DNA of 64,000 nt, taken from Alphaproteobacteria bacterium (GTDB lineage Bacteria > Pseudomonadota > Alphaproteobacteria > UBA828). Position 1 is the first letter of the stretch. Each line of letters begins with the position of its first letter. Under the pieces are notes generated by a model. The model made no database searches, was not told the origin of the DNA, and saw nothing but the letters and a program-made list of their open reading frames with translations. Both the position numbers and the translations under genes were made by a program. The stretch is taken from NCBI GenBank assembly GCA_965200925.1, contig OZ241738.1:491891-555890 (forward strand), written 5' to 3'. Below, in pieces: positions 5,221 through 36,321 of this stretch.

Positions 5221-5286
5221 CGCGTTCTCCCGTCGTCGAATGCCCTTCGATATGCGGCGCCGGCGCGGGATTTCAAGGGGTTTCCT

Positions 5287-5312: not shown

Positions 5313-5480
5313 ATATGGCCTGTCGTTGACGGAGCACCGGCGCCGTGGTAGCGACCAGCCGCCATGCACGGTCAGGCCGCATGTTCCTTTCGCCTCTCGC
5401 CGGACGCCGAGTCCCGCGCCGGGGCCGAAACGGCCGGCTTCCGCCTTGGGGCCAAAGGCACGCACACCAGCCGCACGATC

Positions 5481-6173
5481 ATGCTGGCGGAGCTGGAGGC
5501 GGTCCTGGCAGCGGCCGGTGCGGACGCCGCGCGGGCCGACTACGCGGCGGCGATCATTGAGACCAACTGTTTGTCGAAGCCTACCGCGGCGACGCGCCGG
5601 CTCTCGTGCCAGCGGCTGCGCGAGCTCCACGGGCTGGACCCGGCGCTGCCGCTGTTCCGCGTGCTCCGGCGCCTCTGGGCCTTCGATCCGGCGGGCCGCC
5701 CGCTTCTGGCCTTGCTGTCGGCGCTCGCTCGGGATCCGCTGCTTGCCGCCACCGTTCCCGCGATCGTGTCCCTGCCGCCCGGCGCCGATTTCCAGCGTGC
5801 GCCGATGAAGGCCGCGCTGCGGAGCGCCGTGGGCGAGCGCCTGAATGAGGCGGTCCTCGACAAGACCTGCCGCAACGCGGCCAGCAGCTGGACGCAATCG
5901 GGGCATCTCGAAGGGCGGACGTTCAAGAAGCGGCGGCGGGTCACGGCCTCCACGGCGGCCGTCGCCTTCGCCCTCTGGCTCGCCGGCGCCGCAGGCTGTC
6001 GCGGCGCTGGCGTCTTCGTCTCGGCGTGGCTGCGGCTGGCCGATTGCGGTCCCTCGCGGGCGCGCCGCCTGGCCCTGGAAGCGAAGCGGCTCGGCCTGAT
6101 CGACCTCCGGATGGCCGGCGATGTCGTCGAGCTCGACACGGCCCGGCTCGACCCCGCCGGAAGAGGGGTGTGA
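5481..6173 (+). CDS. brxA: BREX protein BrxA (DUF1819-like)
   Basis: First gene of a co-directional operon followed by BrxB and BrxC. Size ~230 aa; start ATG 5481 inside ORF 5364..6173. Assignment rests mainly on position and size. Confidence 0.55.
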   Translation: MLAELEAVLAAAGADAARADYAAAIIETNCLSKPTAATRRLSCQRLRELHGLDPALPLFRVLRRLWAFDPAGRPLLALLSALARDPLLAATVPAIVSLPPGADFQRAPMKAALRSAVGERLNEAVLDKTCRNAASSWTQSGHLEGRTFKKRRRVTASTAAVAFALWLAGAAGCRGAGVFVSAWLRLADCGPSRARRLALEAKRLGLIDLRMAGDVVELDTARLDPAGRGV

Positions 6174-6739
6174 CCGTGTCGCGCATCGAGGACCTCGCGG
6201 AAGCCTACGGCCGGCATATTGCGACGCCCTGGCAGCGGACGGTCGCCGGCGCCCAGCGTGTCGTGATGGTCGTCTACGACAAGGAGCAGGAGCGGATGCT
6301 GCGCGCCCGCAGGCTCGCCTTCGAGACCGCGACAAAGCGGGCCGGATACGCTTGGCTGGAGGTCGATCTGGCGCCGGCTTTCGCCGAATGGATGGCCGGC
6401 GACGAATACCGGGAGGCGTATTTCGCGACGCCCGAGGATCTGCGGCTGAAGCTCGACGCCGCGTTCCCGGACCATGTGGCCGGCCGCATCCGCGAGCGGC
6501 TGACTTCGGCGGACGCCACGGAGGCTTCCGTCGTCGCGGTCTTCGGCGCGGGCGCGCTCTTCGGCCTCGCGCGGGTCTCGCGAATCCTCGGCATGGTCGA
6601 GAGCGATATCCGCGGCCACCTCGTCCTTTTCTTCCCGGGTCAGTACGAACGGAACAACTACCGCTTGCTGGACGCGCGCGACGGCTGGAACTATCTCGCC
6701 GTGCCGATCACGCTGCGTGGCGCGGAGGAGCACGGATGA
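6170..6739 (+). CDS. brxB: BREX protein BrxB (DUF1788-like)
   Basis: ~190 aa. GTG 6170 overlaps the brxA stop (GTGA). Immediately precedes BrxC, whose ATG overlaps its stop (ATGA). Confidence 0.6.
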   Translation: MTVSRIEDLAEAYGRHIATPWQRTVAGAQRVVMVVYDKEQERMLRARRLAFETATKRAGYAWLEVDLAPAFAEWMAGDEYREAYFATPEDLRLKLDAAFPDHVAGRIRERLTSADATEASVVAVFGAGALFGLARVSRILGMVESDIRGHLVLFFPGQYERNNYRLLDARDGWNYLAVPITLRGAEEHG

Positions 6740-9700
6740 AGATCAAGGACGTCCTCCAGCGCGATCCTGCGGCGCACCCCCTCGTCAACAAGGGCCAGGC
6801 CCGGATCGCCGACCGCGAGGACGCGCAGGTGATGCGGGAGCTGCACGGCGAGCTCGCGACCTTCGTCTGCGAGGGCCAATATGCGGACGGCATCCAGAGG
6901 ATCGTCCGTTCGTTCCTCGACGATCTGGGCCGGACCAGCCAGCGCGGCGCCTGGGTCAGCGGCTTCTTCGGCAGCGGCAAGTCGCACCTCCTGAAGATGC
7001 TCTGCCACCTGTGGCGCAACACCGAATTCCCCGACGGGGCGACGGCGCGCAGCCTGGTTCCCGCGATCCCCGAAGATCTGGCCGCGCTGCTGCGCGAGCT
7101 CGACGTCGCCGCCCGGCGCGCCGGCGGCCTCATGGCCGCGGCCGGTTCGCTGCCCAGCGGCAGCACCGACCACGTGCGCCTCACCATCCTCGGGCTGCTG
7201 CTGCGCGCCGCCGGCCTGCCGGCGCAGTACCCCCAGGCCCGGTTCTGCCTGTGGCTGCACGCCGAGGGGCGCTTCGACGCCGTGAAATCCGCGGTCGAAG
7301 CGGAGGGCCGGCGCTTCGAGCGGGAGCTCAATGACCTCTATGTGAGCGGCGCGATCGCCCGCGCCGTCCTCGCCTGTGCCCCGTCCTTCGCGGCCGGCGA
7401 AGCCGAGGCCAGGCAAGCGATCAGGGCGCAATTCCCGCCCCAGGCCGCCGACATCGCGACGGCGGAGTTCCTGCGCACGGCCAAGGACGCCCTGGCGCAT
7501 GCTTCCGATAGTGAGGGCCGGGTGCCGTGCACACTCGTCGTGCTCGACGAAGTGCAGCAATATATCGGCGATTCGACCGAGCGTTCCATGCTCGTCACCG
7601 AAGTCGCGGAAGCCGTCGAAAAGCAGCTCGATAGCCACGTGATGATCGTCGGCGCGGGCCAGAGCGCGTTGACCGACGCGCCGCTCCTCCAGAAGCTGAT
7701 GGACCGCTTCACGATCCGCGTCCCGCTCTCCGACGCCGACGTGGAGACGGTCACCCGCAAGGTGCTGCTCCAGAAGAAACCCAGCGCCGTCGCCGCTCTG
7801 CGCGCGCTGCTCGAAAGGCACGGCGGCGAGATCTCGCGGCAACTCCAGGGGACCCGGCTGGGCGAGACCGCTGCGGACCGCGTGGCCCTTGCGGACGACT
7901 ACCCGCTGCTGCCGGTCCGCCGGCGTTTCTGGGACGCCTGCTTCCGCCAGATCGACGCGGCCGGCACCCACAGCCAGTTGCGTTCGCAGCTGCGCATCGT
8001 CCACGACGCCCTGGCCAGACTCTCCGACCGGCCGCTCGGCGCGGTCGTCGCCGGCGACGAACTGTTCGATGCGCTCGCGCCCGAGATGGTCAACACCGGC
8101 GTGCTGCTGCGGGAGATCAACGAACGGATCATCGAGGTCGGCGAGGCCGAAGGCGCGCTCGCGCGCCGCCTCTGCGGGCTGATCTTCCTGATCGGCAGGC
8201 TGGCGCGGGAGGCGGGAGCGGATACCGGCGTCCGGGCGACCGCAGACCACCTCGCCGATCTGGTCATCGACGATCTCGCCGCCGACAACGGCAAGCTCCG
8301 CAGCGCGGTCGAAACGACGCTCGGCAAGCTCGCCGGCAACGGCATCCTGATGCGGGTGGGCGAGGAATACCGCCTTCAGACCCGCCAGGGCGCCGAATGG
8401 GATCGGGAGTTCCGCAATCGGCAGACCCGCCTGAACAACGATTCCGCCGCGATCCAGCTTCGGCGCGACGCGCTTCTCCACGGAGAGATCGACAGGATCG
8501 TCCGCGGTCTGCGCATGGTCCAGGGGGCGGCGAAGGAACCCCGGCGCTTCGCCGTTCACCGGGGGGCGTCCCCGCCGCCCGCCGCCGACGGTTCCACGAT
8601 CCCGGTCTGGGTCCGCGACGGCTGGGCGGCGTCGGAGAAGGCGGCGGTGGAGGCGGCGCGGGCGGCGGGCGCCGCCGACCCGACGATTCACGTCTTCGTG
8701 CCCCGTCGTTCGGCGGACGATCTGCGCCGCCTGATCGTCGAGGCGGCCGCGGCCGAACAGGCGCTCGACGCGCGCGGCAACCCGACCGAGCCCGAAGGCC
8801 AGGAGGCGCGCCGGAGCATGGAGAGCCGTCGCGCCCGCGCCGAGGCCGGGCGCGACGCTCTGGTCCGCGACGTCGCCGCCAACGCCAAGGTCTTCCAGGG
8901 CGGCGGCAACGAGGTCCTTCTCGCGGCGCTGGAAGACCGCCTCCGGGCCGCCGGCGAGGACGCGCTCGCGCGCCTGTTCCCCCGCTTCAGGGAAGCCGAT
9001 GGCGCGGCGTGGCCGTCCGTCATCAAGCGTGCGCGTGACGGCGCCGACCACCCGCTCCAGCCGGTCGGGCACACGGACGCGGTGGAAAAGCACGCGGTCT
9101 GCCGGCAGGCGCTTGCCGAGATCGGCGTCGGCGCGTCCGGGGCCGCGTTGCGCAAGGCGCTGGCCGGCCCGCCCTTCGGTTGGCCGCGCGACGCCGTGGA
9201 CGCGGCGCTGATCGCGCTGCATCGCGCGCGGCATCTGTCCGCGACGCTGAACGGCGCGGCGCTCCCGCCAGGCGGGCTCGACCAGAACCGCATCGCGAAG
9301 GCGGCGTTCCGCGCCGAGCGCGCGGCCCTCTCGGTTCAGGATCGCTTGGTCCTGCGGAAGCTCTTCCAGGCCGCCGATCTTGCCTGCAAGAGTGGCGAGG
9401 AGGAAGCCCGGGCGAATGATTTCCTGGACACGCTTGCCGAACTCGCCCGTTCGGCCGGCGGTGAACCGCCGCTTCCCGTCCCGCCCGGTACGGTCGACGT
9501 CGAGGACGCGCGCCGGCTGGCCGGGAACGAACGGCTGGCGGCCATCCGCGACAAGGCCGACGAATGGGAAGGGAAGATCGCCGAGTGGCGCGCGGCGGCG
9601 AAGTCGATCGCCGCGCGTCTGCCGGCATGGCGCCTGGTCGAGCGGCTGGCGGCGCATGCCGAAGGGATCGAAGAGGCCGGGCCGCAGCGCCGCGAGGTGG

Positions 9701-10191
9701 CGGCGGTGCGCGACGGGCGGCAATTGCTGGCGGGCGCGGATCCGGCCGCCGCCATCCGCAAGGCGCTGGCGGACCTTCTCCGCGCTTCCGTCCGGGCCGG
9801 GTTCGAGGCCCTTGAGGCCGCCTTCGCCGAGGCCATGCGGACTCTCGACGCGAACGAAGCATGGCGAAAAGCCGCGCCCGCCGACCGCGAGGCGATCCTG
9901 AAAGAGGCGGGGCTGGCCGCACCGGCGAAGCCGGAGGTCGCGACCGACGAAGCCCTGGCCGACTGCCTCGACCGGCGCTCCCTTGCGGGCGTCCGCGCCG
10001 AGATCGACGCCGTCCCGGCACGCGCGGCCCGTGCCGTCGAGCGGGCGGCCCGGCTGCTGGAACCGAAGGTCCGCCCGGTCGCCCTGGAGCGGGCCACCTT
10101 GCGCGACGCCGCCGAGGTCGAGGCGTGGGCCGAGCGCCAGAAGAAGGCGCTGCTCGAAGCCGTCGCCGACGGCCCGGTGCTGGTGAATTGA
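6736..10191 (+). CDS. brxC: BREX P-loop ATPase BrxC/PglY (~1150 aa)
   Basis: MKIKDVLQRDP... N-terminus with Walker A GFFGSGKSHLLKMLCHLW. Large size and position between BrxB and PglX. Confidence 0.85.
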   Translation: MKIKDVLQRDPAAHPLVNKGQARIADREDAQVMRELHGELATFVCEGQYADGIQRIVRSFLDDLGRTSQRGAWVSGFFGSGKSHLLKMLCHLWRNTEFPDGATARSLVPAIPEDLAALLRELDVAARRAGGLMAAAGSLPSGSTDHVRLTILGLLLRAAGLPAQYPQARFCLWLHAEGRFDAVKSAVEAEGRRFERELNDLYVSGAIARAVLACAPSFAAGEAEARQAIRAQFPPQAADIATAEFLRTAKDALAHASDSEGRVPCTLVVLDEVQQYIGDSTERSMLVTEVAEAVEKQLDSHVMIVGAGQSALTDAPLLQKLMDRFTIRVPLSDADVETVTRKVLLQKKPSAVAALRALLERHGGEISRQLQGTRLGETAADRVALADDYPLLPVRRRFWDACFRQIDAAGTHSQLRSQLRIVHDALARLSDRPLGAVVAGDELFDALAPEMVNTGVLLREINERIIEVGEAEGALARRLCGLIFLIGRLAREAGADTGVRATADHLADLVIDDLAADNGKLRSAVETTLGKLAGNGILMRVGEEYRLQTRQGAEWDREFRNRQTRLNNDSAAIQLRRDALLHGEIDRIVRGLRMVQGAAKEPRRFAVHRGASPPPAADGSTIPVWVRDGWAASEKAAVEAARAAGAADPTIHVFVPRRSADDLRRLIVEAAAAEQALDARGNPTEPEGQEARRSMESRRARAEAGRDALVRDVAANAKVFQGGGNEVLLAALEDRLRAAGEDALARLFPRFREADGAAWPSVIKRARDGADHPLQPVGHTDAVEKHAVCRQALAEIGVGASGAALRKALAGPPFGWPRDAVDAALIALHRARHLSATLNGAALPPGGLDQNRIAKAAFRAERAALSVQDRLVLRKLFQAADLACKSGEEEARANDFLDTLAELARSAGGEPPLPVPPGTVDVEDARRLAGNERLAAIRDKADEWEGKIAEWRAAAKSIAARLPAWRLVERLAAHAEGIEEAGPQRREVAAVRDGRQLLAGADPAAAIRKALADLLRASVRAGFEALEAAFAEAMRTLDANEAWRKAAPADREAILKEAGLAAPAKPEVATDEALADCLDRRSLAGVRAEIDAVPARAARAVERAARLLEPKVRPVALERATLRDAAEVEAWAERQKKALLEAVADGPVLVN

Positions 10192-10203
10192 GGAGATACC
10201 GCA

Positions 10204-11403
10204 ATGTCCTTCATCCGCCGTATCGGCCTGCGCGGCCTGCTGTCGTTTCCGCCCGACATGGAGCCGTTCGATTTCCAGCCGCTGAACGTGCTGATCGGCC
10301 CCAACGGCTCCGGGAAGACGAACCTGATCGAGGCGCTGGAGCTTCTCCGCGCGACGCCAACGGATTTCGCCGCCGCGATCCGCGATGGCGGCGGCGCGGC
10401 GGAATGGTTGTGGAAAGGCGAGAATCCAGCGAGGGCGGCGACGGTAGACATCGAGACCGGAGACTCGACGCCATCGACCGGCCGGCCGTTGCGCTATCTT
10501 CTCCAATTCACGTCGTCGAATAGCCGGGTCGAGGTGCTCGACGAAGCGATCGAGGAAGTGAAGCCCGACATTGGACATGACGAACCGTATTTCTATTATC
10601 ACTTCCAGCAGGGACGACCGGCCATTAACGTCAAAGAGACAACGGAAGGTGGTTCTGGTGGACATGTGGAAAGGCGCCTCAAGCGAGACGACATTTTGCC
10701 GGATCAGTCTGTCCTGATGCAACGCAAGGAACCGGATCTCTACCCGGAAGTCGCTTGGATCGGGCGCATGTTCGGGCAAATCCAGACGTTCCGCGACTGG
10801 ACCTTCGGGCGTTATGCTCCATTAAGGCAGCCACAACCTGCGGATCTGCCGGAGGATCGACTGCTGCCCGATAATCGCAACTTAGCCTTGCTTCTCAATC
10901 AAGTCGAACACCGTGATCCTCGGCGGTTCAACGAACTCCTTAAGCGATTCTTCCCACGTTTTGAACGGATGTCGACCAGGATCTCCGGCGGCACGGTGCA
11001 ATTCTATCTGCATGAGTCCGGTTTCGAGTCACCGATCCCCCCGACACGGCTGTCGGATGGGACGGTGCGCTTTGTCGCTATCCTCGCGACCCTGCTGGCG
11101 CCGTCGCCGTCGCCGCTCGTATGCATTGAAGAACCGGAGCTCGGGCTGCACCCCGACGCGCTGACGCTGGTTGCCGAGCTTCTGGTAGAGGCATCCGAGC
11201 GTATGCAACTTGTGGTCACCACGCATTCGGATGCACTTGTCTCCGCGTTGACGAACCAACCGGAATCTGTCGTTGTTTGCGAGCGGCCGGGTGCGGGTAC
11301 CGTGCTGGAACGACTCGATCCCGAAAAGTTGGCGCACTGGTTGAACGAGGATTATGGGCTTGGCGACTTGTGGCGTATCGGAAAACTGGGCGCCAATCCA
11401 TGA
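10204..11403 (+). CDS. ABC-type ATPase (AAA_21/AAA_15-like; OLD/AriA/PtuA-like N-terminal ATPase), module 1
   Basis: Walker A LIGPNGSGKTNLIEALELL. Walker B/D-loop LVCIEEPELGLHPDA. H-loop VVTTHS. 399 aa. Confidence 0.75.
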   Translation: MSFIRRIGLRGLLSFPPDMEPFDFQPLNVLIGPNGSGKTNLIEALELLRATPTDFAAAIRDGGGAAEWLWKGENPARAATVDIETGDSTPSTGRPLRYLLQFTSSNSRVEVLDEAIEEVKPDIGHDEPYFYYHFQQGRPAINVKETTEGGSGGHVERRLKRDDILPDQSVLMQRKEPDLYPEVAWIGRMFGQIQTFRDWTFGRYAPLRQPQPADLPEDRLLPDNRNLALLLNQVEHRDPRRFNELLKRFFPRFERMSTRISGGTVQFYLHESGFESPIPPTRLSDGTVRFVAILATLLAPSPSPLVCIEEPELGLHPDALTLVAELLVEASERMQLVVTTHSDALVSALTNQPESVVVCERPGAGTVLERLDPEKLAHWLNEDYGLGDLWRIGKLGANP

Positions 11404-12011
11404 GTTCCGTCGAAATCTATATGGAGGGGGGAGGGGATCATCGAAATGGTAAGGAACGTCTTCGTCTCGGTATGGATGCGTTTCTTAGCGAGATGAAGGG
11501 CATGGCCAGGTCCCGGTCGACCCGCTGGAGACTCGTTCTTTGTGGTGGGCGGAACCAGGCATATCGGGCGTTTGTGGAAGCGTGTCGGAGCGACCGGGAC
11601 AGCATCTTCGTGCTGCTGGTCGATTCGGAAGGTCCCGTAAATTCCTCGCCGCGCGCCCATCTGGCCGCGGACGGGTGGGACCTGGACGGAGTGGACGAAG
11701 ACCGGGTTCATCTGATGGTCCAGACGATGGAAACCTGGATCGTCGCCGACCCCGAGGCCCTTGCCGCCTATTACAGGCAGAGCTTTCGAGCGAACGCTCT
11801 CCCGGCGGCGGACGACCTGGAAACGGTCGCCAAGAACGAGGTCGCCAGTGCCCTGGACCGGGCGACCGAGCAGACGCAGAAAGGCCGCTACCACAAGATC
11901 CACCACGCCGCCGACCTCCTCGCGTGCATCGACCCGGCGAAGGCGCGGGCGCGCTGCCGCCATTGCGAGCGCCTGTTCGCCACCCTCGACGCGGCCGTCG
12001 CGGCGGGGTGA
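11400..12011 (+). CDS. Small TOPRIM-like partner protein (DUF4276-like; alternatively DUF4435/AriB-like), module 1
   Basis: ATG 11400 overlaps the ATPase stop (ATGA). ~203 aa. N-terminal EIYMEGGGD (conserved Glu) and LLVDSEG (acidic motif) are consistent with TOPRIM/OLD-nuclease-like small partners of AAA_21 ATPases. Confidence 0.55.
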   Translation: MSSVEIYMEGGGDHRNGKERLRLGMDAFLSEMKGMARSRSTRWRLVLCGGRNQAYRAFVEACRSDRDSIFVLLVDSEGPVNSSPRAHLAADGWDLDGVDEDRVHLMVQTMETWIVADPEALAAYYRQSFRANALPAADDLETVAKNEVASALDRATEQTQKGRYHKIHHAADLLACIDPAKARARCRHCERLFATLDAAVAAG

Positions 12012-12100
12012 GGCGATGAGCGCGCTTTCGCGGGAATCGCGCCGGGCGCTGGAGAGGGCCGTCCGCAAGGCCCGCGCCGCCGCCGAAGCGGGCGCGGGCA
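11984..12100. repeat. ~117-bp direct duplication, copy A, spanning the DUF4276-1 3' end and the first 28 codons of pglX (near-identical copy B at 14003-14119)
   Basis: gcggccgtcgcggcggggtgaggcgatgagcgcgctttcgcgggaatcgcgccgggcgctggagagggccgtccgcaaggcccgcgccgccgccga is identical in both copies, then 2 mismatches and divergence after gggcaag. Confidence 0.85.
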
Positions 12101-12132
12101 AGATGAAGTTGGGGGGAGGGGAGGAGAGATGA
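12016..12132 (+). pseudogene. pglX 5' stub (MSALSRESRRALERAVRKARAAAEAGAGK + 9 unrelated codons); insertion scar
   Basis: Translation is identical to the first 28 residues of full-length PglX at 14025. Terminates after KLGGGEER; its stop overlaps the ATPase-2 start (ATGA). Confidence 0.7.
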
Positions 12133-13355
12133 ACATGACCGACGAACAGCTTGCTGGCGTTCCGCGGATCGAGCGTTTGAAGGTGCGGAATTTTCGGGTG
12201 TTGAAAGACGTCGATATAAGGGATTTGACGCCTTTGACGGTGCTGCTTGGACCGAACGGGAGCGGCAAAACCACCTTGTTCGACGTGTTCGCGTTCCTCT
12301 CCGAATCCTTCGAGGACGGCCTGAGGCGCGCCTGGGATCGACGCGGGCGGGCCAGAGAGCTCAAGACCCGTGGCGCCAAAGGCCCGGTCATCGTCGAACT
12401 CAAATACCGCGAGCGACCGGGCACACCGCTTATCACCTATCACCTGGAGGTGGACGAGCATGATGGCGCGCCCAGTGTCGTCCGTGAATGGCTATGGTGG
12501 AAACGGCACAGCTATGGACGCCCGTTTCGTTTTCTCGAATACCGAAATGGCGGAGGCACAGCGATCAGCGGCGAACAACCCGATGTCGAGGAGGATAGAA
12601 TCCCAATTCCTCTCAAGTCTCCCGACCTGCTGGCGGTCAACACGCTTGGGCAGCTCCGGGAGCATCCGCGCGTGGCCGCGCTGCGCGACTTCATTATGAA
12701 CTGGCACGTATCCTACCTTTCCGTGGATGACGCGCGCGGGCATCCGGAAGCGGGCCCCGAGAAGTGGTTGACCAGGACCGGCGATAATCTCGCCAACGTG
12801 ATTCAGTATCTGAAGGAGAATCATCCGAAGCGGTTGAAGAGGATATTCAAATTATTGGGGCGGCGGGTGCCGCATGTCGAGAAGGTTCGCGCTGAAACCA
12901 TGCCGGACGGGCGACTGCTTCTGCAAATCAAGGACGCGCCGTTCGATCATCCGGTTCAGGCGCGCTTCGCTTCCCATGGAACGCTCAAGATGCTGGCCTA
13001 TCTGGTGTTGCTGCATGACCGGAATCCGTCGCCGTTCATCGGTATCGAGGAACCGGAGAATTTCCTGCATCCGAGGCTACTTCCCGAATTGGCGGAAGAA
13101 TGCCGCGCGGCCAGCGCGCGCACGCAACTGCTCGTCACGACGCACTCCCCGTTTTTTCTGAACGCGCTTCGCCCCGAGGAAGTCCGCGTTTTGTGGCGCG
13201 ACGAAACCGGCCACGCGCAGGTCGAGCAGACCTCTGGTCTCGAGGGAGTGGCGGAGTTCATGGATAACGGGGCGCTGCTCGGGCAGCTGTGGGCAGAAGG
13301 GCAGTTCGGCGTCGGCGATCCACTGGTCCGTCGCGGCGGAGGACGCCGCCGATGA
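12129..13355 (+). CDS. ABC-type ATPase (AAA_21-like), module 2, diverged paralogue of the 10204 gene
   Basis: RIERLKVRNFRVLKDVDI...LTVLLGPNGSGKTTLFDVFAFL (Walker A). FIGIEEPENFLHP (Walker B). LVTTHSPFF (H-loop). 408 aa. Confidence 0.75.
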   Translation: MNMTDEQLAGVPRIERLKVRNFRVLKDVDIRDLTPLTVLLGPNGSGKTTLFDVFAFLSESFEDGLRRAWDRRGRARELKTRGAKGPVIVELKYRERPGTPLITYHLEVDEHDGAPSVVREWLWWKRHSYGRPFRFLEYRNGGGTAISGEQPDVEEDRIPIPLKSPDLLAVNTLGQLREHPRVAALRDFIMNWHVSYLSVDDARGHPEAGPEKWLTRTGDNLANVIQYLKENHPKRLKRIFKLLGRRVPHVEKVRAETMPDGRLLLQIKDAPFDHPVQARFASHGTLKMLAYLVLLHDRNPSPFIGIEEPENFLHPRLLPELAEECRAASARTQLLVTTHSPFFLNALRPEEVRVLWRDETGHAQVEQTSGLEGVAEFMDNGALLGQLWAEGQFGVGDPLVRRGGGRRR

Positions 13356-13969
13356 CGTCGGCGCGCCATTTTATATTTCTTGTCGAGGAACCATCCATGG
13401 AGGCGTTTCTCCAGGCGCTCGTTCCACGTATTCTTCCCGATTGCGAGTGCGACATTCGACTGTTTCAGGGGAAACGGGATACGATGAAAAATCTACCGAA
13501 CCGTCTTCGCGCTTATAGCCGCTGGCTGCCCGAAAATTGGCGTATCGTCGTGATGGTCGATCGCGACAACGACGATTGCCGGCTGCTCAAGGCGCAGCTG
13601 GAAAAGGCAGCTGCCGAGTCGCGGCTACGCACGCGCGCGCAATCCGGCGGCGCTTGTTGGCAGGTCGTCAACCGCATCGTGATCGAAGAACTGGAGGCTT
13701 GGTATTTCGGAGACTGGGACGCCGTTCGGCGCGCCTACCCAAAGGTTCCCGATACGATTCCGGGGAAAGCTAAATACCGGAACCCGGACGAGATACACGG
13801 CGGAACGTGGGAAGCATTCGAGCGTGTCCTTCAGAAGCACGGGTATTTCAAGGGTGGGCTACGCAAGATCGAGGCCGCGTGCGCCATCGCCCCGCACGTC
13901 GATCCAGGGCGCAACCGGTCGCCGAGTTTCGCGGCGTTTCGCGATGCACTCGTCGAGGCGGCTGCCTGA
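13352..13969 (+). CDS. Small TOPRIM-like partner protein (DUF4276-like), module 2
   Basis: ATG 13352 overlaps the ATPase-2 stop. ~205 aa. FIFLVEEPSMEAF (conserved Glu) and VMVDRDNDD (DxD) are typical of TOPRIM. Confidence 0.55.
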   Translation: MTSARHFIFLVEEPSMEAFLQALVPRILPDCECDIRLFQGKRDTMKNLPNRLRAYSRWLPENWRIVVMVDRDNDDCRLLKAQLEKAAAESRLRTRAQSGGACWQVVNRIVIEELEAWYFGDWDAVRRAYPKVPDTIPGKAKYRNPDEIHGGTWEAFERVLQKHGYFKGGLRKIEAACAIAPHVDPGRNRSPSFAAFRDALVEAAA

Positions 13970-14002
13970 CGATGGCGATTGGGAAGAAATGCTGGCGGCG
14001 CG

Positions 14003-14119
14003 GCCGTCGCGGCGGGGTGAGGCGATGAGCGCGCTTTCGCGGGAATCGCGCCGGGCGCTGGAGAGGGCCGTCCGCAAGGCCCGCGCCGCCGCCGAGGCGG
14101 GTGCGGGCAAGGCGCTGGA
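14003..14119. repeat. ~117-bp direct duplication, copy B (covers the start of functional pglX)
   Basis: See copy A at 11984-12100. Confidence 0.85.
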
Positions 14120-17100
14120 AAGCCTCGCGGTCGGCCGCCGCGAACCTTGGGAGTCGATGACGCCGGACGGCCGCGCGCTGCGCAACCGGCTGCGCGCCCA
14201 CGGGCGGCATCTCGGCGACCGGCGCGACCCCCGGAGCGGCACACAGGCGAGCGGCCGGCTGATGCGGGAATGCGCCTACGAGCACTGGCACCGGATGCTG
14301 TTCGCCCGCTTCCTCGCCGAGGCCGGCCTGCTGATCGAGCCGGAAACCGGCGTCGCCGTCACCCTCGCCGAGGCGAAGGAGCTCGCCCGCGCCACCGGCG
14401 ACCGACCACTGGCCACCGGCGACCGACCACTGGCCACCGGCGACCGACCACTGGCCACCGGCGACCGACCACTGGCCACCGGCGACCGACCACTGGCCAC
14501 CGGCGACCGACCACTGGCCACCGGCGACCGACCACTGGCCACCGGCGACCGATCACTGGCCACCGGCGACCGACCACACGACTGGCTGGCGCTGGCCGGC
14601 GCCTGGGCCGGGCGGATGCTGCCGCAGATCTTCCGCGCCGGCGACCCGGTTCTCGACGTCGCCTTGCCGCCGGAAACGCGGGCCGACCTCGAAGCGCTGC
14701 TGGAGGGGCTGCCGCGCGCGACCTTCCTCGCCGACGACAGCCTCGGCTGGGTCTACCAATTCTGGCAGGCGGACAGGAAGGAGGCGGTCAACCGCTCCGG
14801 CGTCAAGATCGGCGCCGACGAGCTCCCGGCCGTCACCCAGCTCTTCACCGAGGATTACATGGTCCTGTTCCTGCTCCACAACACGCTGGGCGCGTGGTGG
14901 GCGGGCAAGGTGCTGGCGGCGCGCCCCGGCCTCGCGCAATCGGCCGGAAGCGAGGAGGAACTGCGCGAAGCCTGCAAGGTCGGCGCCGTGGAGTGGCGCT
15001 ATCTGCGCTTCGTCCGCGCGGAGGGGGAAGATGGCGCACCCGGCCCGTGGCGCCCGGCGGCGGGCGCGTATCCCGGCTGGCCGCGCGCGGCGAAGGACGT
15101 GACGCTGTGCGACCCGTGCATGGGTTCGGGGCATTTCCTGGTCTTCGCCCTGCCGATCCTCGCCGCGTTGCGCATGGCGGAGGAGGGGCTTTCGCGGGAG
15201 GCGGCGACGGACGCCGTGTTGCGCGACAACCTCTTCGGCCTGGAGATCGACCCGCGCTGCACGCAGATCGCCGCCTTCACCCTCGCCTTCGCCGCGTGGC
15301 GCATGGCGGGATACCGCTCGCTGCCGGCGCTGAACCTCGCCTGTTCCGGCCGCGCCGTCGGCGCGTCGAAGGCGGAATGGCGGCGGCTGGCGGAGAGGGC
15401 CGCCGCGGCCGCCGACCCGGCCGCCGCCCGCGACCCGCTCGGCGCGGAGGAGACCTTGCGCGCGGCCGGCGTCGAAGAGCGCGTGAAGAACGGGCTCGAG
15501 GCGCTGCACGAATTGTTCGCCCAGGCGCCGGCGCTCGGCAGCCTGATCGACCCGCGCCGGGTGAGCGGCGACATCCTGACCGCGGATTTCGAGGCGCTGG
15601 AGTCGTTGCTGGGCGTGGTTCTCAAGGCGGCGGAGAACGACAGTGAGACCGCGGAGATGGCCGTCGCCGCGCAGGGCATGGCGAAGGCGGCGGAACTCCT
15701 GGGGCGGCGCTTCACGCTGGTGGTGACGAACGTGCCCTTCCTCGGGCGCGGCAAGCAGGACAGGGTGTTGCAGGACCATCTGGCGGTGCATTTCGACGAC
15801 GCGAAGCGCGATCTCGCCACCGCCATGCTTCGCCGCCTGCTGGGCTTCGCGGATACGGGCGGGGTGGTCGCCGCCGTTACGTCGCAGAATTGGCTGTTCC
15901 TGAAGTCCTACGCGAAGCTGCGCAAGCGCGTGTTGCGGGAAACGACATTGAACGTCGTCGCCGCGCTCGGGCCACGCGCGTTCGAGACCATCAGCGGCGA
16001 GGTCGTGAATACCGCCCTGGTAACACTCACCGCCACCTCGCCGCCAAGCGATGCGGCCTTTGCTAGCCTGGACACCAACGACGGTGCGGATGCGGCCGCG
16101 AAAGCGCGGGCGCTGTCGCAGGGGGAGCTATCGCTGCCGGCGCAGGCGGCGCAGAACGCGAATCCGGTTTCTAACCCTGATCTTGTTATTGGATATGAAA
16201 GCAAAGAAGGAACTCAAACCCTTGATAGCGTAAGTTATTGCTATCAGGGCTTGGCGACCAGCGATAATTCCCAATTTGTTATCAACTTTTGGGAACTTGC
16301 AAGGATTTCTGGTGGCTGGGAACCATTCCAAATGACATCCGATGGGACATCAACCTTGAGCGGATGCTCTTGGATAATCCATTGGGAGAACGGCGAAGGT
16401 CGTTATGCACGACATGCGAAGGCTCTAAAAAAGGCAGGAAGGCTTGGAGGATGGAAATCAGGCCATGAGGCTTGGGGGAAGGTTGGCGTCGCAGTCAACA
16501 GAATGAAAGATCTTCCATGTTCTCCATATTTCGGTACAATGTTCGATTGTAATGTTGCTGTTATTATACCTGACGATCCTGAAGATTTCTCGTGGATTTG
16601 GGCACAGGTTCGGACTTCTGAGTATTCAAAAGAGGTTCGTCGACTGAACCGGAATGTTAGTGTGGCCAATCTGACGTTGATCAGGGTGCCGATTGATGAA
16701 AAAATTCGTAGAGCCGATTCATTTCCTAACTTGAGCGCAGCGCAGTGCCCCAACCCGACGCAATGGCTGTTCGACGGACACCCCGCCCGCGCGGACGCAC
16801 CGCTGCAGGTCGCCGCCGCCCGCCTGTGCGGCTATCGCTGGCCACGCCAGACCGGCTCCAGCTTCATGGATTGCCCAACCGTCGGCCCCGACGGGCTCGA
16901 GCGCCACGCGGACGCCGACGGCATCGTCTGCCTCGCCGCCATCGCCGGCGAGGCCCCGGCGCACGAACGGCTGGCCGCGCTGCTCACCGACGCCTTCGGC
17001 CCCGATTGGTCGGCGGCCCGGTTCGCCGGCCTGCTCGCCGAGGCGGGCTTCGCCGGCAAGAGCCTCGACGACTGGCTCCGCGACGGCTTCTTCGCCCAGC

Positions 17101-17735
17101 ACTGCAAGCTGTTCCGCCACCGCCCCTTCGTCTGGCACGTCTGGGACGGCCGCCGCGACGGCTTCCACGCGCTGGTCAACTGCCACCGCCTCGCCGCGCC
17201 CGGCGGCGAAGGCCGGCGCACGCTGGAGAAGCTGATCTGGTCCTGTCTCGGCGCCTGGATCGACCGCCAGCGGGCCGAACGGGACGCGGAAACCGAAGGC
17301 GCCGACGCCCGCCTCGCCCACGCCGAACACCTGCGCGCCGAACTCGTCAAGGTCCTCGAAGGCACGCCGCCCTACGACCTCTTCGCCCGCTGGAAGCCGC
17401 TCCACGAACAACCCCTCGGCTGGGAGCCGGACGCGAACGACGGCGTGCGCGTCAACATCCGCCCCTTCATGACCGCCCGCCCCCTCGCCGCCAGGGCAAG
17501 GAACGCTTGCATCCTGCGCACGACGCCCAACATCCACTGGCGCAAGGACCGCGGCAAGGAGCCCCGGCGGGAGAAGGCCGACCACCCCTGGTTCTGGAGC
17601 CGCAACCCGGACGACCCTGCCCACGAAGTCGATTTCCCCGGTGGCGCGGATTTCGACGGCAACCGCTGGAACGATCTGCACTACACTCGCGCCGCCAAAG
17701 AAGCCGCGCGGGCGGCGGAAGGAGAAGGCCGATGA
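14025..17735 (+). CDS. pglX: BREX adenine-specific DNA methyltransferase PglX (~1236 aa)
   Basis: N6-adenine MTase motifs DPCMGSGHFLVFA and VVTNVPFLG. Size and position. ATG 14025 chosen inside ORF 13824..17735. Confidence 0.85.
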   Translation: MSALSRESRRALERAVRKARAAAEAGAGKALESLAVGRREPWESMTPDGRALRNRLRAHGRHLGDRRDPRSGTQASGRLMRECAYEHWHRMLFARFLAEAGLLIEPETGVAVTLAEAKELARATGDRPLATGDRPLATGDRPLATGDRPLATGDRPLATGDRPLATGDRPLATGDRSLATGDRPHDWLALAGAWAGRMLPQIFRAGDPVLDVALPPETRADLEALLEGLPRATFLADDSLGWVYQFWQADRKEAVNRSGVKIGADELPAVTQLFTEDYMVLFLLHNTLGAWWAGKVLAARPGLAQSAGSEEELREACKVGAVEWRYLRFVRAEGEDGAPGPWRPAAGAYPGWPRAAKDVTLCDPCMGSGHFLVFALPILAALRMAEEGLSREAATDAVLRDNLFGLEIDPRCTQIAAFTLAFAAWRMAGYRSLPALNLACSGRAVGASKAEWRRLAERAAAAADPAAARDPLGAEETLRAAGVEERVKNGLEALHELFAQAPALGSLIDPRRVSGDILTADFEALESLLGVVLKAAENDSETAEMAVAAQGMAKAAELLGRRFTLVVTNVPFLGRGKQDRVLQDHLAVHFDDAKRDLATAMLRRLLGFADTGGVVAAVTSQNWLFLKSYAKLRKRVLRETTLNVVAALGPRAFETISGEVVNTALVTLTATSPPSDAAFASLDTNDGADAAAKARALSQGELSLPAQAAQNANPVSNPDLVIGYESKEGTQTLDSVSYCYQGLATSDNSQFVINFWELARISGGWEPFQMTSDGTSTLSGCSWIIHWENGEGRYARHAKALKKAGRLGGWKSGHEAWGKVGVAVNRMKDLPCSPYFGTMFDCNVAVIIPDDPEDFSWIWAQVRTSEYSKEVRRLNRNVSVANLTLIRVPIDEKIRRADSFPNLSAAQCPNPTQWLFDGHPARADAPLQVAAARLCGYRWPRQTGSSFMDCPTVGPDGLERHADADGIVCLAAIAGEAPAHERLAALLTDAFGPDWSAARFAGLLAEAGFAGKSLDDWLRDGFFAQHCKLFRHRPFVWHVWDGRRDGFHALVNCHRLAAPGGEGRRTLEKLIWSCLGAWIDRQRAERDAETEGADARLAHAEHLRAELVKVLEGTPPYDLFARWKPLHEQPLGWEPDANDGVRVNIRPFMTARPLAARARNACILRTTPNIHWRKDRGKEPRREKADHPWFWSRNPDDPAHEVDFPGGADFDGNRWNDLHYTRAAKEAARAAEGEGR
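14391..14577 (+). repeat. In-frame 21-bp tandem repeat (gccaccggcgaccgaccactg, ~8.9 copies) encoding (ATGDRPL)n within pglX
   Basis: Eight perfect or near-perfect copies from 14391 (copy 8 carries a C>T giving P>S) plus a partial ninth. Translation ATGDRPL x7, ATGDRSL, ATGDRPHDW. Confidence 0.9.
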
Positions 17736-20494
17736 CCTTCCAACGACAGGCCACGGAAAAGTGGCGTAACGAAGTCCCCGGCGCGCGCTGGTTCAAGGCC
17801 GACCTGCACGTCCATACCATCGACGACCACGCCGGCCGGGCGAAAATGCCGGACGGCCTGTCGGGCGATCCGGCGGACCCACAGACGCTGGAGGACTACG
17901 CGCGGCGCTTTCTCCGGGCCGTCGTGGAACGCGGCGTGCAGGTCGTCGGGCTGACGCCGCATTCGCCGCGCGCGGGGGACGGCTCGGACACGAGCGCCGT
18001 CTGGCGCATCGTCGAGGAGTGGAACGAAGGAACCGACGACGACGGCATCCCGTTCCGGAAGAAGATATACGCCGTGTTCCCCGGATTCGAACCGTCGCTC
18101 CGGGAGGGAAAAGAAGGCTTGCATCTCCTGTTTCTGTTCGATCCCGAAATCGGCCGCGATCGTTATCTGAGAGTCTTCGATCTTGTTATGGGCGGCGTTT
18201 CGCCTTGGCAAGGCGGAACCTTGCAGATCTCCGGCAAGCGTGCGGACCAAGCTTTCGACGATTTGAAGAATTTCCGGGAGCGTGAACACTCCGTCGGCGA
18301 GGGTTGGAATTCTCTTGTCCTCGCCCCCCATATCGACGCCGACAAGGGTTTGCTCGGCACGCAGAAAGCCCAGGTTCTGCAACTCTTTGATCACGGAGCA
18401 ATCGCCGGTCTGGAACTCGGCGACGACAAGCTGCCGAAAGAAATTTTGCAGAACCGTCTGTGGCTCCGCGATGGAATGGAAACGCATCGTCAGGCGTTCT
18501 TCCACGCCAGCGACGCCTACGGTCCGGGCGACGTCGGCCGTCGCCATACGTGGATCAAGCTCGCGAGTCCGCGCATCGAAGCCCTGCGCCAAGCGTTCGT
18601 CGCCAGCGATTCGCGCGTGCGGATCGGCTTCGAGAAAGGCAGCGATGGCGCGCTCCGGCCGATCGACCATCCGCCCGCCGTTATATCCGGAAACCGCCCT
18701 TGGCTGAGAGAGGTGACGGTACGCGGCGGCGTTTCGTTCTTCGGCGGCCAGGAAGATGGTAAGCCGAGAGGGACCCGCTTCCGGCTGAATCCGGACCTGA
18801 CCTGCATCATCGGCGGCAGCATGACCGGCAAGAGCACCTTGCTCGACGGCCTGCGCTTGCATGTCGGTGCGCCGTTGCCCTCCAACGAGGCGGTCCGCAG
18901 GCAGGTCGAAACCCGGGGCCGGAACGTTTTCGCCGCCGGTTCGCCCGAGGTTGCGCTCGACTGCCCTGGCCAGGACCCCACTGCACCACCGTTGGAACGG
19001 TGGCCCGCCCGGTTCTTCGCCCAGAACGAATTGCAGCGCCTCTCCCAAGAGAGCGCGGCCGCTGAAGACATTCTTGCGCGCCTGATTCCGTCCGAAATAG
19101 AAGGAATCGATGGGCGCGGCGCCGAGTTGAAACGCCTCGACAAGCGCCTCGCCGATCTGGCCAGGCAGCTCGCGAAACTCGATGAAACCGTCGGGGAAGC
19201 GGAGCAGGATTGTCAACGCACCGGCGACGCGAAAGTGGCGCTCGCCGCCTTTTCCGAAGCCGGCGTGGACGATCTCCACCAAGCCAGCCGTGAGCGGCGG
19301 GCCTGGGAATCGACGGCGAGCACCGTTCAGACGGCTCTCCGAGGTCCTGTCAGGGAAATCGTTCGAGCCGCGCGGGAAATCGACTTGCCGCCCGTGGGCG
19401 GGAAGCAGGTGGAGATTCCGTCAGAGAATTCGGTCGATTGGCGAAAGCTGGATCTGGACGGAAGACAACGCCGGATCGTCGAACGCCTGGAAGCCGTGTC
19501 GCAAGAGGCGGAGAAATGGATCGCTGACATTCTCGACGTCTCCTTGAAAATGGGCAAACGCGAGGCCGCCGTTCGTATCGAAGTGGAGCGAGCTCTTGCC
19601 GCCCGCGGATACGACGCCGGGACACTCAAGGAGATTCAGCAACTCACACGCCAAGCATCGCTGTTTCCCAATTACGCGGCGCATCGCGACGATACGCGCC
19701 GCCGACTCGCGGCGGACGAGAAGGCGTTCGGCGACTCGTCGAAGGAGCGCCGTGCTCTCGTCGAAGAGCAGCGACGGGCCTTCGCGCGCGTTGCCCAAGG
19801 CGTGAACCGGGAATTCGGAGGCCGGATCCGTGTGCACCGGATTGACGACGCCGACACCCGGACTCTCGACGATTTCTTGAGAGGGCTACGGCAAAAGGGC
19901 GTGACGCGCTGGTGGAACGACTTCGACCCGACGAAGAAACCCTCGCCCGACAGGCTGGTCGCGTGCCTCGCCGCTGGTTCCCTCGCCGAAGTCGGCATGA
20001 GCGATGCCGTCCAGGAAAGGTTCCGCGAGAGCGTCACCAAGTCGAAGCGGCGTGAGTTGGCCGCGCTGCGGTGCCCGGACCGTTACGTTCTCGAACTGCG
20101 GATGGACGACGGTTCCTACCGCCCTCTGGACGATCTTTCTGGAGGCCAACGAGTCAGCGTTCTTCTCTCCCTTCTTCTGGAAACCGAAGATGCCCGCCCG
20201 CTGGTGATCGACCAACCCGAGGACGAACTCGACAACCGGTTTCTGTCGGAAACGGTCCTCCCGGCACTGAAGAAACTGCGCGGTCGGCGGCAAGTCATCG
20301 TCGCGACGCACAAGGCGGAGATCGTCGTCAATGGAGACCCCGACATGGTGATCCTTCTCGACGCGACGGCCCACCACGGGCGCGTGGCATGCGCCGGCGC
20401 GATCGAGGAACCGGCCGTTCGCGACGCCATCGTGCGCACTGTGGACGGCGGGGAGGAAGCATTCCGTCTTCGACGGCGGAAATACGGATTCTGA
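17732..20494 (+). CDS. PHP-domain phosphoesterase fused to an SbcC/RecF-like ABC ATPase (920 aa); nested accessory gene between pglX and pglZ
   Basis: N-terminal PHP motifs: FKADLHVHTIDDHAG, LTPHSP, APHIDADKG. RecF/SbcC-like N-lobe with Walker A: LTCIIGGSMTGKSTLLDGLRL. Long coiled-coil-like middle region. ABC signature and Walker B/D-loop: LSGGQRVSVLLSLLLE...LVIDQPEDELD. ATG overlaps the pglX stop. Confidence 0.7.
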   Translation: MTFQRQATEKWRNEVPGARWFKADLHVHTIDDHAGRAKMPDGLSGDPADPQTLEDYARRFLRAVVERGVQVVGLTPHSPRAGDGSDTSAVWRIVEEWNEGTDDDGIPFRKKIYAVFPGFEPSLREGKEGLHLLFLFDPEIGRDRYLRVFDLVMGGVSPWQGGTLQISGKRADQAFDDLKNFREREHSVGEGWNSLVLAPHIDADKGLLGTQKAQVLQLFDHGAIAGLELGDDKLPKEILQNRLWLRDGMETHRQAFFHASDAYGPGDVGRRHTWIKLASPRIEALRQAFVASDSRVRIGFEKGSDGALRPIDHPPAVISGNRPWLREVTVRGGVSFFGGQEDGKPRGTRFRLNPDLTCIIGGSMTGKSTLLDGLRLHVGAPLPSNEAVRRQVETRGRNVFAAGSPEVALDCPGQDPTAPPLERWPARFFAQNELQRLSQESAAAEDILARLIPSEIEGIDGRGAELKRLDKRLADLARQLAKLDETVGEAEQDCQRTGDAKVALAAFSEAGVDDLHQASRERRAWESTASTVQTALRGPVREIVRAAREIDLPPVGGKQVEIPSENSVDWRKLDLDGRQRRIVERLEAVSQEAEKWIADILDVSLKMGKREAAVRIEVERALAARGYDAGTLKEIQQLTRQASLFPNYAAHRDDTRRRLAADEKAFGDSSKERRALVEEQRRAFARVAQGVNREFGGRIRVHRIDDADTRTLDDFLRGLRQKGVTRWWNDFDPTKKPSPDRLVACLAAGSLAEVGMSDAVQERFRESVTKSKRRELAALRCPDRYVLELRMDDGSYRPLDDLSGGQRVSVLLSLLLETEDARPLVIDQPEDELDNRFLSETVLPALKKLRGRRQVIVATHKAEIVVNGDPDMVILLDATAHHGRVACAGAIEEPAVRDAIVRTVDGGEEAFRLRRRKYGF

Positions 20495-20503
20495 GGCGCG
20501 GCG

Positions 20504-21706
20504 ATGGAATGGGCGAACGTACTGCGACGCATAGAAGCGGGCGAAGACCGAACCACCGAGTTCAAGCGGGAGCTCGGAAACGACCTGTCCGCCGTCGGCA
20601 AGGCGATTTGCGCGTTCGCGAACGGTGAAGGCGGCTTGATCGTCCTTGGAATCGACGACGCGGGATCCATCATCGGGCTGAACGCAGATCCGCACAAGGT
20701 GCATGAGCGATTGACCGATTTCCTGCAAACCGGATGCAGCGCGCCGGTCGGGGCGCGCTATGGACGGCACGAGGTCGCGAACGGCTGGGTCCACTGGATC
20801 GAGGCGCCCCGCATCCGGGGACCGGAACCGCTTCGCTACCGCGGGCGCACCTACATTCGCCGCGAACGAAGCAGCGTGGAGCCCTCTCCCCACGAGCTTC
20901 AGGAATTGTTCAACGCCTTCGGCTTTGTCTTAACCGAAGAACAGGCGATTCTGGCGGCGAGTGTCGAAGACATCGATATCAAGTCGTTCCGGTCGTTCCT
21001 GCGCAGACGGGGGCTCGAAACGGAGGAAGAGCCGCAACCCTCGATCGAGGACGATCTGCGCAATGCCCGCGTTCTGCGCGACGTCGACGGAACGCTTCGC
21101 CCCACTCTCTACGGGCTGATGGTCTTCGGCCGGGATCCCCAGGCGCATCCGCACACCGGAAGCTTCTGGATCCAATGCACCGCCTATGCGGGCCGCGACC
21201 GGGCGTCGGACGTCATCCTGGTCGGGGAGGGCAAGGGGCACCTCGACGAACAGGTGCGCCGGGCGCTCGGCTGGCTGAAGAGCCTGGGGTGGACCGAATC
21301 CTATCCCGGCATCCTTCGCGAGGATCGCCCGCTGATCCCCGAACCCGCGGTTCGCGAAGCGCTGGTGAACGCCGTCGCCCACCGCGACTACGCGCTCATC
21401 GGCTCGCCCGTGCAGCTCGAAGTGTTCCGCGACCGGGCCGCCGTCACCAGCCCCGGCACGCTCCCCAACCACATGACGGTCGAAAACGTCCGGTTCGGCG
21501 GTCTCCCACGCTCCCGCAACGAGTGGATGGCGAACGCCATGGTCGTGGCGCGCCTGATGGAAAAGCGGGGGCTCGGTTGGCTCAGGATGCGCCGCGAAAT
21601 GCAGGCGTTCAACGGCACCGAACCGGAACTGGTCAACGACGAAGGCGGCAAATTCGTCCGCGTGACCTTCCGCCTGAAGCCGGAACCCGCCGGGGAAAAA
21701 GCGTGA
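20504..21706 (+). CDS. AlbA_2/Schlafen-like divergent-AAA ATP-binding protein with C-terminal HATPase_c_4-like region (putative nucleic-acid-binding)
   Basis: N-terminus ...EDRTTEFKRELGND...AICAFANGEGGLIVLGIDDAGSIIGL is typical of the AlbA_2 (Schlafen group) domain. 400 aa. The PglZ GTG start overlaps its stop. Confidence 0.5.
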   Translation: MEWANVLRRIEAGEDRTTEFKRELGNDLSAVGKAICAFANGEGGLIVLGIDDAGSIIGLNADPHKVHERLTDFLQTGCSAPVGARYGRHEVANGWVHWIEAPRIRGPEPLRYRGRTYIRRERSSVEPSPHELQELFNAFGFVLTEEQAILAASVEDIDIKSFRSFLRRRGLETEEEPQPSIEDDLRNARVLRDVDGTLRPTLYGLMVFGRDPQAHPHTGSFWIQCTAYAGRDRASDVILVGEGKGHLDEQVRRALGWLKSLGWTESYPGILREDRPLIPEPAVREALVNAVAHRDYALIGSPVQLEVFRDRAAVTSPGTLPNHMTVENVRFGGLPRSRNEWMANAMVVARLMEKRGLGWLRMRREMQAFNGTEPELVNDEGGKFVRVTFRLKPEPAGEKA

Positions 21707-36298: not shown

Positions 36299-36321
36299 GC
36301 GAGCCCTGGGGACGAACAGCG

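Follow-up and report, generated by a model that had tools for sequence, protein, structure and literature searches.

What is a nearly perfect tandem repeat doing inside the gene of a defence enzyme, at a point where almost all homologous proteins keep a short turn of constant length? The question is raised by a stretch of 64,000 nucleotides from an Alphaproteobacteria bacterium of the UBA828 lineage (assembly GCA_965200925.1, contig OZ241738.1, positions 491,891 to 555,890, forward strand), called the window below. The gene is pglX, which belongs to a type 1 bacteriophage exclusion (BREX) system, and the repeat is a run of 21-bp units near its 5' end. The array is real, in frame and polymorphic among close relatives. 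We read it, with a probability of about 0.6, as a recently expanded, structurally tolerated, copy-number-polymorphic coding minisatellite (variable-number tandem repeat, VNTR), lying in frame in the pglX of an intact type 1 BREX system. Most likely, the enzyme tolerates the resulting loop, and unit numbers differ mainly because the site mutates often, not because a regulatory device has been selected there. The features of pglX that bear on the question are as follows, in window coordinates, where AF2 stands for AlphaFold 2 and TRF for Tandem Repeats Finder.

14025 to 17735, plus strand: pglX (brxX), encoding the type 1 BREX N6-adenine DNA methyltransferase and specificity factor, 1236 amino acids (aa) (PADLOC, Pfam, PDB, Foldseek).
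14364 to 14390, plus strand: 5' flank of the array, helix ...TLAEAKELAR, ending in the nearly invariant A121 and R122 (AF2, conservation, alignment).
14391 to 14579, plus strand: nine tandem 21-bp units, encoding (ATGDRPL)7-ATGDRSL-ATGDRPH (TRF, pattern search, translation, AF2).
14580 to 14618, plus strand: 3' flank of the array, conserved DWLALAGAWAGR, with a predicted helix at residues 187-198 (AF2, conservation, alignment).
16165 to 16753, plus strand: target-recognition core of PglX, apparently exchanged relative to the closest backbone relative (identity profile, gap in the blastn alignment).

TRF reports the array at 14391-14577, with a period of 21, 8.9 copies, 98% matches, no indels and a score of 367, compared to a score of 80 for the runner-up tandem array of the window. 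A pattern search allowing up to three mismatches finds nine contiguous copies of the unit GCCACCGGCGACCGACCACTG at 14391-14579 and none elsewhere in the window; 0.01 matches were expected, and nine were reached in none of 100 dinucleotide-preserving shuffles. Units 1-7 are perfect copies. Unit 8 differs by a single C>T change at 14553 (position read from the sequence), which turns CCA into TCA and Pro into Ser, and this is the one substitution among the eight internal units. Unit 9 is of full length and diverges in its final two nucleotides, having CAC in place of CTG and thus His for Leu. The array is therefore a head-to-tail series of near-identical units whose length is a multiple of three. 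Its peptide is in frame with a long open reading frame (ORF) at 13824-17735, for which the most likely start is the ATG at 14025 (MSALSRES...), where the homologues begin. An earlier note on this DNA had described an in-frame 21-bp repeat near the N-terminus of PglX, made of eight units and a partial ninth with a C>T variant in copy 8. The TRF score, the translation and the match of the gene to the PADLOC PglX model PDLC02528 bear out the array and its host gene, and its place near the N-terminus holds as well (residues 123-185 of 1236, a segment of 63 residues). The variant in copy 8 also stands, whereas the supposed partial ninth is a complete, slightly diverged terminal unit. The count of nine rests on the assembled sequence, and a related scaffold, L083, has a gap of 100 N inside the same array.

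The number of units differs among the closest relatives, which carry the following sequences between the same flanks.

Protein P0001, locus L084, and most of the clade: ELAR-DRGG-DWL, no unit.
Protein P0005, locus L002: ELAR-AAGDRPH-DWL, one unit.
Protein P0002, locus L001: ELAR-ATGDRPL-ATGDRPH-DWL, two units, with a synonymous ACC>ACT change in the first.
Locus L083: 3.6 perfect units, a 100-N scaffold gap and 2.6 perfect units, at least six units.
Window: (ATGDRPL)7-ATGDRSL-ATGDRPH, nine units.

Unit number thus takes the values 0, 1, 2, at least 6 and 9 among BREX loci that are 85-98% identical in DNA, and every allele seen, in the window and in its relatives, is in frame. A comparison of repeat number among related strains was the check proposed in the earlier note, and the outcome agrees with its statement that length would change without a frameshift. 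Across 2653-27732 of the window, L001 and L083 show 91-98% DNA identity, L084 86-93% and L002 85-89%. The sequences flanking the array are 98-99% identical between the window and L001 or L083 despite the different unit number. L001, L083, L084 and a further locus, L085, trace back to separate samples within a single ENA metagenome project (PANK22-1), and L002 comes from another ENA assembly. Since the PglX encoded by the two-unit allele is 98-100% identical to that of the window outside the recognition region, the unit number turns over far more quickly than single nucleotides are substituted. The series from none to one, two and many units suggests that a turn of seven residues came first, followed by its duplication and later by amplification. 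In L083, the array also defeats short-read assembly and annotation: the gap interrupts it at 9732-9962 of that scaffold, and the pglX call is cut to 1025 aa, starting just past the array.

Outside this group of loci, the array was not encountered. A 24-nt unit junction had no exact match in JGI metagenome contigs or in viral contigs, no comparable array was present in about 80 other PglX loci, and a protein search with the repeat and its flanks returned short fragments without the repeat. Since neither those contig collections nor the PglX loci hold it, the array appears to be confined to one narrow clade and not to be a conserved feature of the PglX family. A scan of GTDB representative genomes gave no relative above 59% identity, and hence no strain-level comparison, while the sole match in a plasmid collection (75%, a plasmid of Azospirillum lipoferum) added no further allele.

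The position of the array in the protein can be described from conservation and from a predicted structure. Across 117 aligned homologues, the upstream flank reads ...TL.E..ELAR and the downstream flank DWL.LA...A.RMLPQIF, with W187 invariant and D186 nearly so. In the sequences that were read directly, the canonical turn between these flanks has four residues, for example EQGA. The AF2 model, which spans residues 1-1196 of the 1236 and is poor at its C-terminal end, places a helix at 114-125 before the array and another at 187-198 after it, with residues 125-184 modelled as coil at a predicted local distance difference test (pLDDT) value of ~26. According to this model, the array is an expanded turn between two helices of the N-terminal helical domain and not a linker between domains (the earlier note had spoken of a length-variable linker), and the loop of 63 residues, rich in Pro, Gly, Asp and Arg, is predicted to be disordered. 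Other PglX proteins carry additional residues between the same two helices. In a profile alignment, the Salmonella PglX (8C45) has ~20 extra residues exactly at the array site, so that insertions there are compatible with at least one functional PglX; P0170 has a non-repeat insertion of ~45 aa at this site, and P0232 an insertion of eight residues. In contrast to the array, these insertions are non-repetitive, fixed and not tandem. The N-terminal domain itself (residues 1-210 of Escherichia coli BrxX) is described as specific to BREX (PMC11842806) and is also reported to be homologous to the N-terminal domain of M.EcoKI (PMC12839542). Two apparent relationships of the heptad peptide were rejected: the YadA-head/Hep_Hag repeat PF05658 (E 0.74, 10.7 bits versus a cut-off of 25), and a PDB match to BpaC (7O23, E 3e-5), which is due to periodic composition only.

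At the DNA level, the unit is quasi-palindromic, and the two strands of the array behave differently when folded as single-stranded DNA. The G-rich minus strand forms a long imperfect hairpin of -60.2 kcal/mol, compared to -37.6 +/- 3.0 kcal/mol for shuffled sequences (z = -7.5, equalled in none of 200 shuffles), while the plus strand reaches a z of -2.05 only. Perfect direct repeats that form hairpins on one strand are a classical substrate for slipped-strand mispairing, and the strong hairpin here is consistent with the earlier claim that the array is prone to slippage. Two codons of each unit are also rare in the window: CGA accounts for 5% of Arg codons there and CCA for 8% of Pro codons. 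The near-identity of the units together with these rare codons argues for a recent amplification at the DNA level rather than for an old, optimised sequence.

The array may then have formed as follows. A 21-bp segment encoding a seven-residue turn, A-[A/T]-G-D-R-P-H, between two conserved helices would have been duplicated, and slipped-strand mispairing or unequal recombination between identical units would have amplified it further, probably aided by the hairpin of the G-rich minus strand. The outcome would be a predicted-disordered loop of 63 residues bulging from a turn that is normally short and conserved in length. We infer slippage as the mechanism of copy-number change. Gain or loss of units would alter only the length of the loop and never the frame: since the unit is three times seven base pairs, the frame is kept at every gain or loss, and an ON/OFF phase switch does not arise.

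Whether the enzyme that carries this loop still works is central to any reading. The ORF matches PDLC02528 with 1376.6 bits, and the match is split into two stretches exactly at the repeat. The protein also matches the Pfam families Eco57I, MmeI_Mtase and N6_Mtase and, by sequence, the PDB entries 8ZEK, 8C45 and 9EWZ (E 4e-41 to 9e-41). The best Foldseek matches of its AF2 model are 8C45, 8Q56, 9EWZ, 9EX7 and 8ZEK (E 3e-28 to 4e-24; ~1e-28 to 1e-26 for the first three), with template-modelling (TM) scores of just 0.37-0.41, as expected of a multi-domain hinge protein and a moderate model. The protein has the motifs of a gamma-class N6-adenine methyltransferase. Motif I (GxG; DPCMGSGHF) is intact and invariant across 117 sequences. 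The NPPY-like motif IV (NVPF) is intact too, its last position being F in 42 of the 117 homologues and Y in the other 75. Because the ORF is uninterrupted over its 1236 aa, both motifs are intact and the full set of BREX genes is present, the gene looks functional.

Taken as a whole, the PglX allele is mosaic. Outside the recognition region it shares 98-100% identity with P0002, while residues ~700-900 are 94-98% identical to P0001 and 28-44% identical to P0002. The mosaic stretch runs from 15822 to 16753 (residues ~600-910), with divergence starting at ~600 and strongest at 700-900, and its segment 16165-16753 gave no blastn alignment to L001 or L083. This pattern indicates that the specificity domain was recently exchanged between co-occurring BREX islands, and the replacement of one recognition region by another intact one suggests ongoing selection on specificity.

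Two other repeats were seen in pglX genes. An imperfect direct repeat of 32 bp (14192-14255, 2.1 copies, 80-82% matches, with indels) lies in the conserved N-terminal coding part and occurs also in L083 at 9533-9596; it is probably a product of chance or composition in GC-rich coding DNA. The pglX of L002 has a 10-bp unit, TCCCGCCAGT, in 4.5 copies with 91% matches (12575-12619, residues ~858-880 of P0005), within an insertion of 22 residues that no other close relative has, located in a different loop (HPAR|APLQV). As its period is not a multiple of three, the change of a single unit would shift the frame.

Set beside known systems, the pglX array is a coding VNTR, a known kind of element in an interesting gene, and mechanistically ordinary. 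With bacterial coding VNTRs of the kind used as markers in multiple-locus VNTR analysis, it shares a unit that is a multiple of three, near-identical units, a copy number that differs between close relatives, a low-complexity segment predicted to be disordered, and slippage or unequal recombination as the probable source of change. Unlike typical VNTRs, it lies in a cytoplasmic defence enzyme rather than a surface protein, and in a normally fixed-length inter-helix turn rather than a natural linker. The literature searched on BREX, pglX, tandem repeats and phase variation held no report of a tandem-repeat array in pglX.

The closest precedent by gene is the G-tract in pglX of Streptomyces coelicolor, to which the earlier note had compared the array. 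According to PMC4365076, which cites Sumby & Smith 2003, a change from eight to seven G switches the frame and turns the system ON or OFF at frequencies of 1e-2 to 1e-4. Both cases have a repeat tract inside pglX, a length changed by slippage (probably so in the array) and the same functional gene class. However, the G-tract, a run of a single nucleotide, changes the frame, whereas the array has a unit of 21 bp that is always in frame. The analogy also fails on the system, which in Streptomyces is Pgl, while the named relatives of the PglX in the window belong to Proteobacteria, including Alphaproteobacteria, and to other Gram-negative lineages. The sources disagree on how far the Pgl protein resembles BrxX in its N-terminal part: Streptomyces Pgl is described as a Type-2 BREX system with the N-terminal domain conserved in Type-2 methyltransferases (PMC12839542), but also as having a PglX that lacks an N-terminal domain homologous to that of BrxX (PMC11842806). 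The phasevarion tracts of Type I and Type III methyltransferases consist of short units, of 1-5 bp and at most 7 bp, which put the gene out of frame and thereby switch its expression (PMC7383803). These tracts resemble the array in being generated, for the array probably, by slippage in defence methyltransferase genes, and for phasevarions the result is population heterogeneity. With contingency loci in general, the array has in common a tract inside a gene and a copy number that differs among close relatives, but not their defining shift of frame or of promoter spacing. A frameshift phase switch is accordingly ruled out by the 21-bp unit, as a change of one unit shifts neither.

A second precedent concerns an in-frame repeat. 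In HsdS of EcoR124I/II, a 12-bp unit encoding TAEL is present in two or three copies and alters the target spacer from N6 to N7; the repeat is part of a helical coiled-coil ruler between the two recognition domains (PMC7383803, citing Price et al. 1987, 1989). The likeness is that of an in-frame tandem repeat in a component of restriction-modification. The pglX array, by contrast, is rich in Pro and Gly (one of each per seven residues) and predicted to be coil, and it precedes the recognition region, where divergence begins at ~600, by more than 400 residues. A specificity ruler of this type was rejected for the array, which is in the N-terminal domain and predicted to be coil rather than helix. 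An effect of the array on specificity is not expected, because it appears to be in the wrong domain and not helical.

The favoured reading, a tolerated loop at a mutable site, draws on the predicted disorder of the peptide, the insertions found elsewhere at the same site, the intact ORF, motifs and system, the narrow clade, and the absence of an array from ~80 loci. On these grounds, the loop would be tolerated and close to neutral. Several points weigh against it. Of 162 homologous proteins, 156 have the canonical spacing between the flanks, as do 25 of 26 genome loci (~96%), and an outlier of +59 residues in a turn of conserved length with invariant flanks could affect function. The N-terminal domain has been proposed as an interface for BrxC and PglZ or as a cis-inhibitory element (PMC11842806, PMC12839542), and a long loop on such a putative interface could matter. 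Arrays of several units have been kept in three related lineages, which could reflect selection, and pglX is the BREX gene known as a target of programmed variation (PMC11341690). Finally, the disorder comes from an AF2 model of moderate quality, with a mean pLDDT of 69 and a predicted template-modelling score (pTM) of 0.45.

Some of these points lend themselves to a different account, possible though doubtful, which takes up the earlier note's idea of a tuned or switched PglX and in which the array is an adaptive rheostat or contingency locus and the reversible gain or loss of seven-residue units alters the length of a loop on PglX's N-terminal domain. Such changes would modulate the assembly with BrxC and PglZ, the relief of cis-inhibition, or the susceptibility to a phage inhibitor or to proteolysis, and the cells of a population would differ in BREX methylation and restriction, by degrees or by switching, with no frameshift involved. 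In its favour, unit numbers vary between islands of nearly the same sequence, of which a single metagenome project supplied three. Also in its favour are the proposed roles of the N-terminal domain and the fixed length of the turn in ~96% of homologues, which together with the invariant flanks makes it likely that a change has a phenotype. The account also has precedents, in that pglX is the usual target of BREX variation (PMC11341690; for the G-tract, PMC4365076) and that the TAEL repeat of EcoR124I/II shows how an in-frame repeat can alter a property of a restriction-modification system (PMC7383803). However, the array is found in one narrow clade only, with no match to the unit junction in the JGI and viral sets and none among ~80 loci; the peptide is predicted to be disordered, and unrelated insertions are tolerated at the same site; and an in-frame change makes a clean ON/OFF switch impossible. 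More doubtful still is the idea that the array has been selected as a reversible, frame-preserving BREX 'dimmer'. Slippage would then lengthen or shorten a disordered loop on the surface proposed for contact with BrxC and PglZ or for cis-inhibition, and the population would come to include groups of cells that differ by degrees in methylation and restriction, or that respond differently to a phage anti-BREX factor or to proteolysis. If true, this would be a new mode of defence variation, distinct from frameshift switches, inversions and swaps of recognition domains.

It is improbable that the insertion attenuates or inactivates PglX, for example as an escape from BREX autoimmunity or toxicity, in a locus that is decaying. 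The allele of the window departs extremely from a turn whose length is otherwise conserved, and PglX activity can be toxic, with Streptomyces losing it readily through repeat changes (PMC4365076). Nevertheless, the ORF of 1236 aa is intact and its catalytic motifs are conserved; BrxA, BrxC, PglZ and BrxL match their models over the full length, with BrxB placed by synteny; and the recognition region was apparently swapped in recent times for an intact one, which suggests selection on specificity. A frameshift or a stop codon would also have been an easier route to inactivation.

That the assembler created the array, or at least mis-sized the count of nine, is very unlikely. At 187-189 bp, the array exceeds typical short reads, and the gap of 100 N breaks the same array in L083. 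Yet two other, independent assemblies share the unit, its frame and its site, those of L001 (two units) and L083 (at least six), and the unique variant of unit 8 and the distinct terminal unit are of a kind rarely seen in collapsed or expanded artefacts. Moreover, a DnaX that is 100% identical to that of the window is encoded on a 3.55-Mb contig, suggesting a highly contiguous source assembly.

Least credible of all is an element acting as DNA or RNA rather than as peptide (grouped protein-binding sites or BREX target sites, a promoter within the gene, or a structured RNA), for despite the quasi-palindromic unit and the strong folding of the minus strand, there is no promoter-like or terminator-like site at 13300-15300 and no Rfam match at E <= 1 at 13000-16000, the unit is found nowhere else in the 64-kb window, and the frame is strictly preserved across alleles.

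The interest of the array as a tolerated minisatellite lies partly in its host. Within BREX, PglX provides both specificity and methylation, and it is varied by G-tract frameshifts, by inversions and by changes of the recognition domain, to which a fast in-frame repeat in the N-terminal domain would add a further route of variation. The natural alleles with 0, 1, 2 and 9 units, whose backbones are almost identical, could be compared in experiments as they stand. If the array affects function, it offers a natural handle on the role of the BREX-specific N-terminal domain in the BrxBCXZ complex; if it is neutral, it is useful as a strain marker for the population and as a warning for assembly and annotation.

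The type 1 BREX system around pglX appears to be complete, with all six genes intact. The other five are listed here.

5364 to 6173, plus strand: brxA (PADLOC BrxA PDLC02450, E 3.9e-92).
6176 to 6739, plus strand: brxB, coordinates derived from synteny with L001.
6736 to 10191, plus strand: brxC (pglY), ATPase (PADLOC BrxC PDLC02489, 1392 bits), start taken from synteny with L001.
21703 to 24030, plus strand: pglZ (PADLOC PglZ PDLC02566, E 1.7e-271, full-length match).
24033 to 26081, plus strand: brxL (PADLOC BrxL PDLC02506, E 7.9e-285; Pfam BrxL_N and BrxL_ATPase).

BrxA, BrxC, PglZ and BrxL are thus supported by matches to hidden Markov models over their full length. The position of BrxB follows from L001, in which a BrxB of 187 aa (PF08747) is encoded at 2149-2712, the segment 1-7195 of L001 being 94.4% identical to 4028-11228 of the window. 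Further defence genes appear to be embedded in the BREX operon at 10204-13969 and at 17732-21706. Between brxC and pglX lie two HEC-01 pairs, each consisting of an AAA_21 ATPase and a DUF4276-like partner (10204-11403 with 11277-12011, and 12129-13355 with 13289-13969), and the islands of the relatives contain one or two such pairs. Between pglX and pglZ are the genes for a 920-aa ATPase whose C-terminus is Ppl-like (17732-20494) and for a Schlafen/AlbA_2-HATPase_c_4 protein (20504-21706). Upstream of the BREX island, an ORF of 836 aa (124-2634) matches a mad2-type methyltransferase model weakly (E 2.6e-9) and has no NCBIfam match at E <= 1e-10.

In the relatives, a HicB-like gene and integrase fragments follow brxL on its 3' side (L001 21927-22864, syntenic with ~26100-27100 of the window). 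L085, which encodes a DnaX 99% identical to that of the window, stops ~6 kb upstream of dnaX, near the island and short of the BREX genes. The integrase fragments and HicB-like gene of the relatives, together with the end of L085 near the island, suggest that the BREX cluster is located in a mobile or variable island. The surrounding DNA has a G+C content of ~70%, and the best model for dnaX of the window is PRK09111 (DnaX), its named relatives being metagenome-assembled genomes of Rhodospirillales. Together with the named relatives of PglX, this makes a Rhodospirillales-like alphaproteobacterium the probable host, and a Streptomyces origin was rejected. The dnaX gene (36160-37986) has imperfect GC-rich tandem repeats of its own in its C-terminal part (37497-37581, units of 15-29 bp, 65-86% matches), and the nearest DnaX homologues vary in length from 550 to 595 aa.

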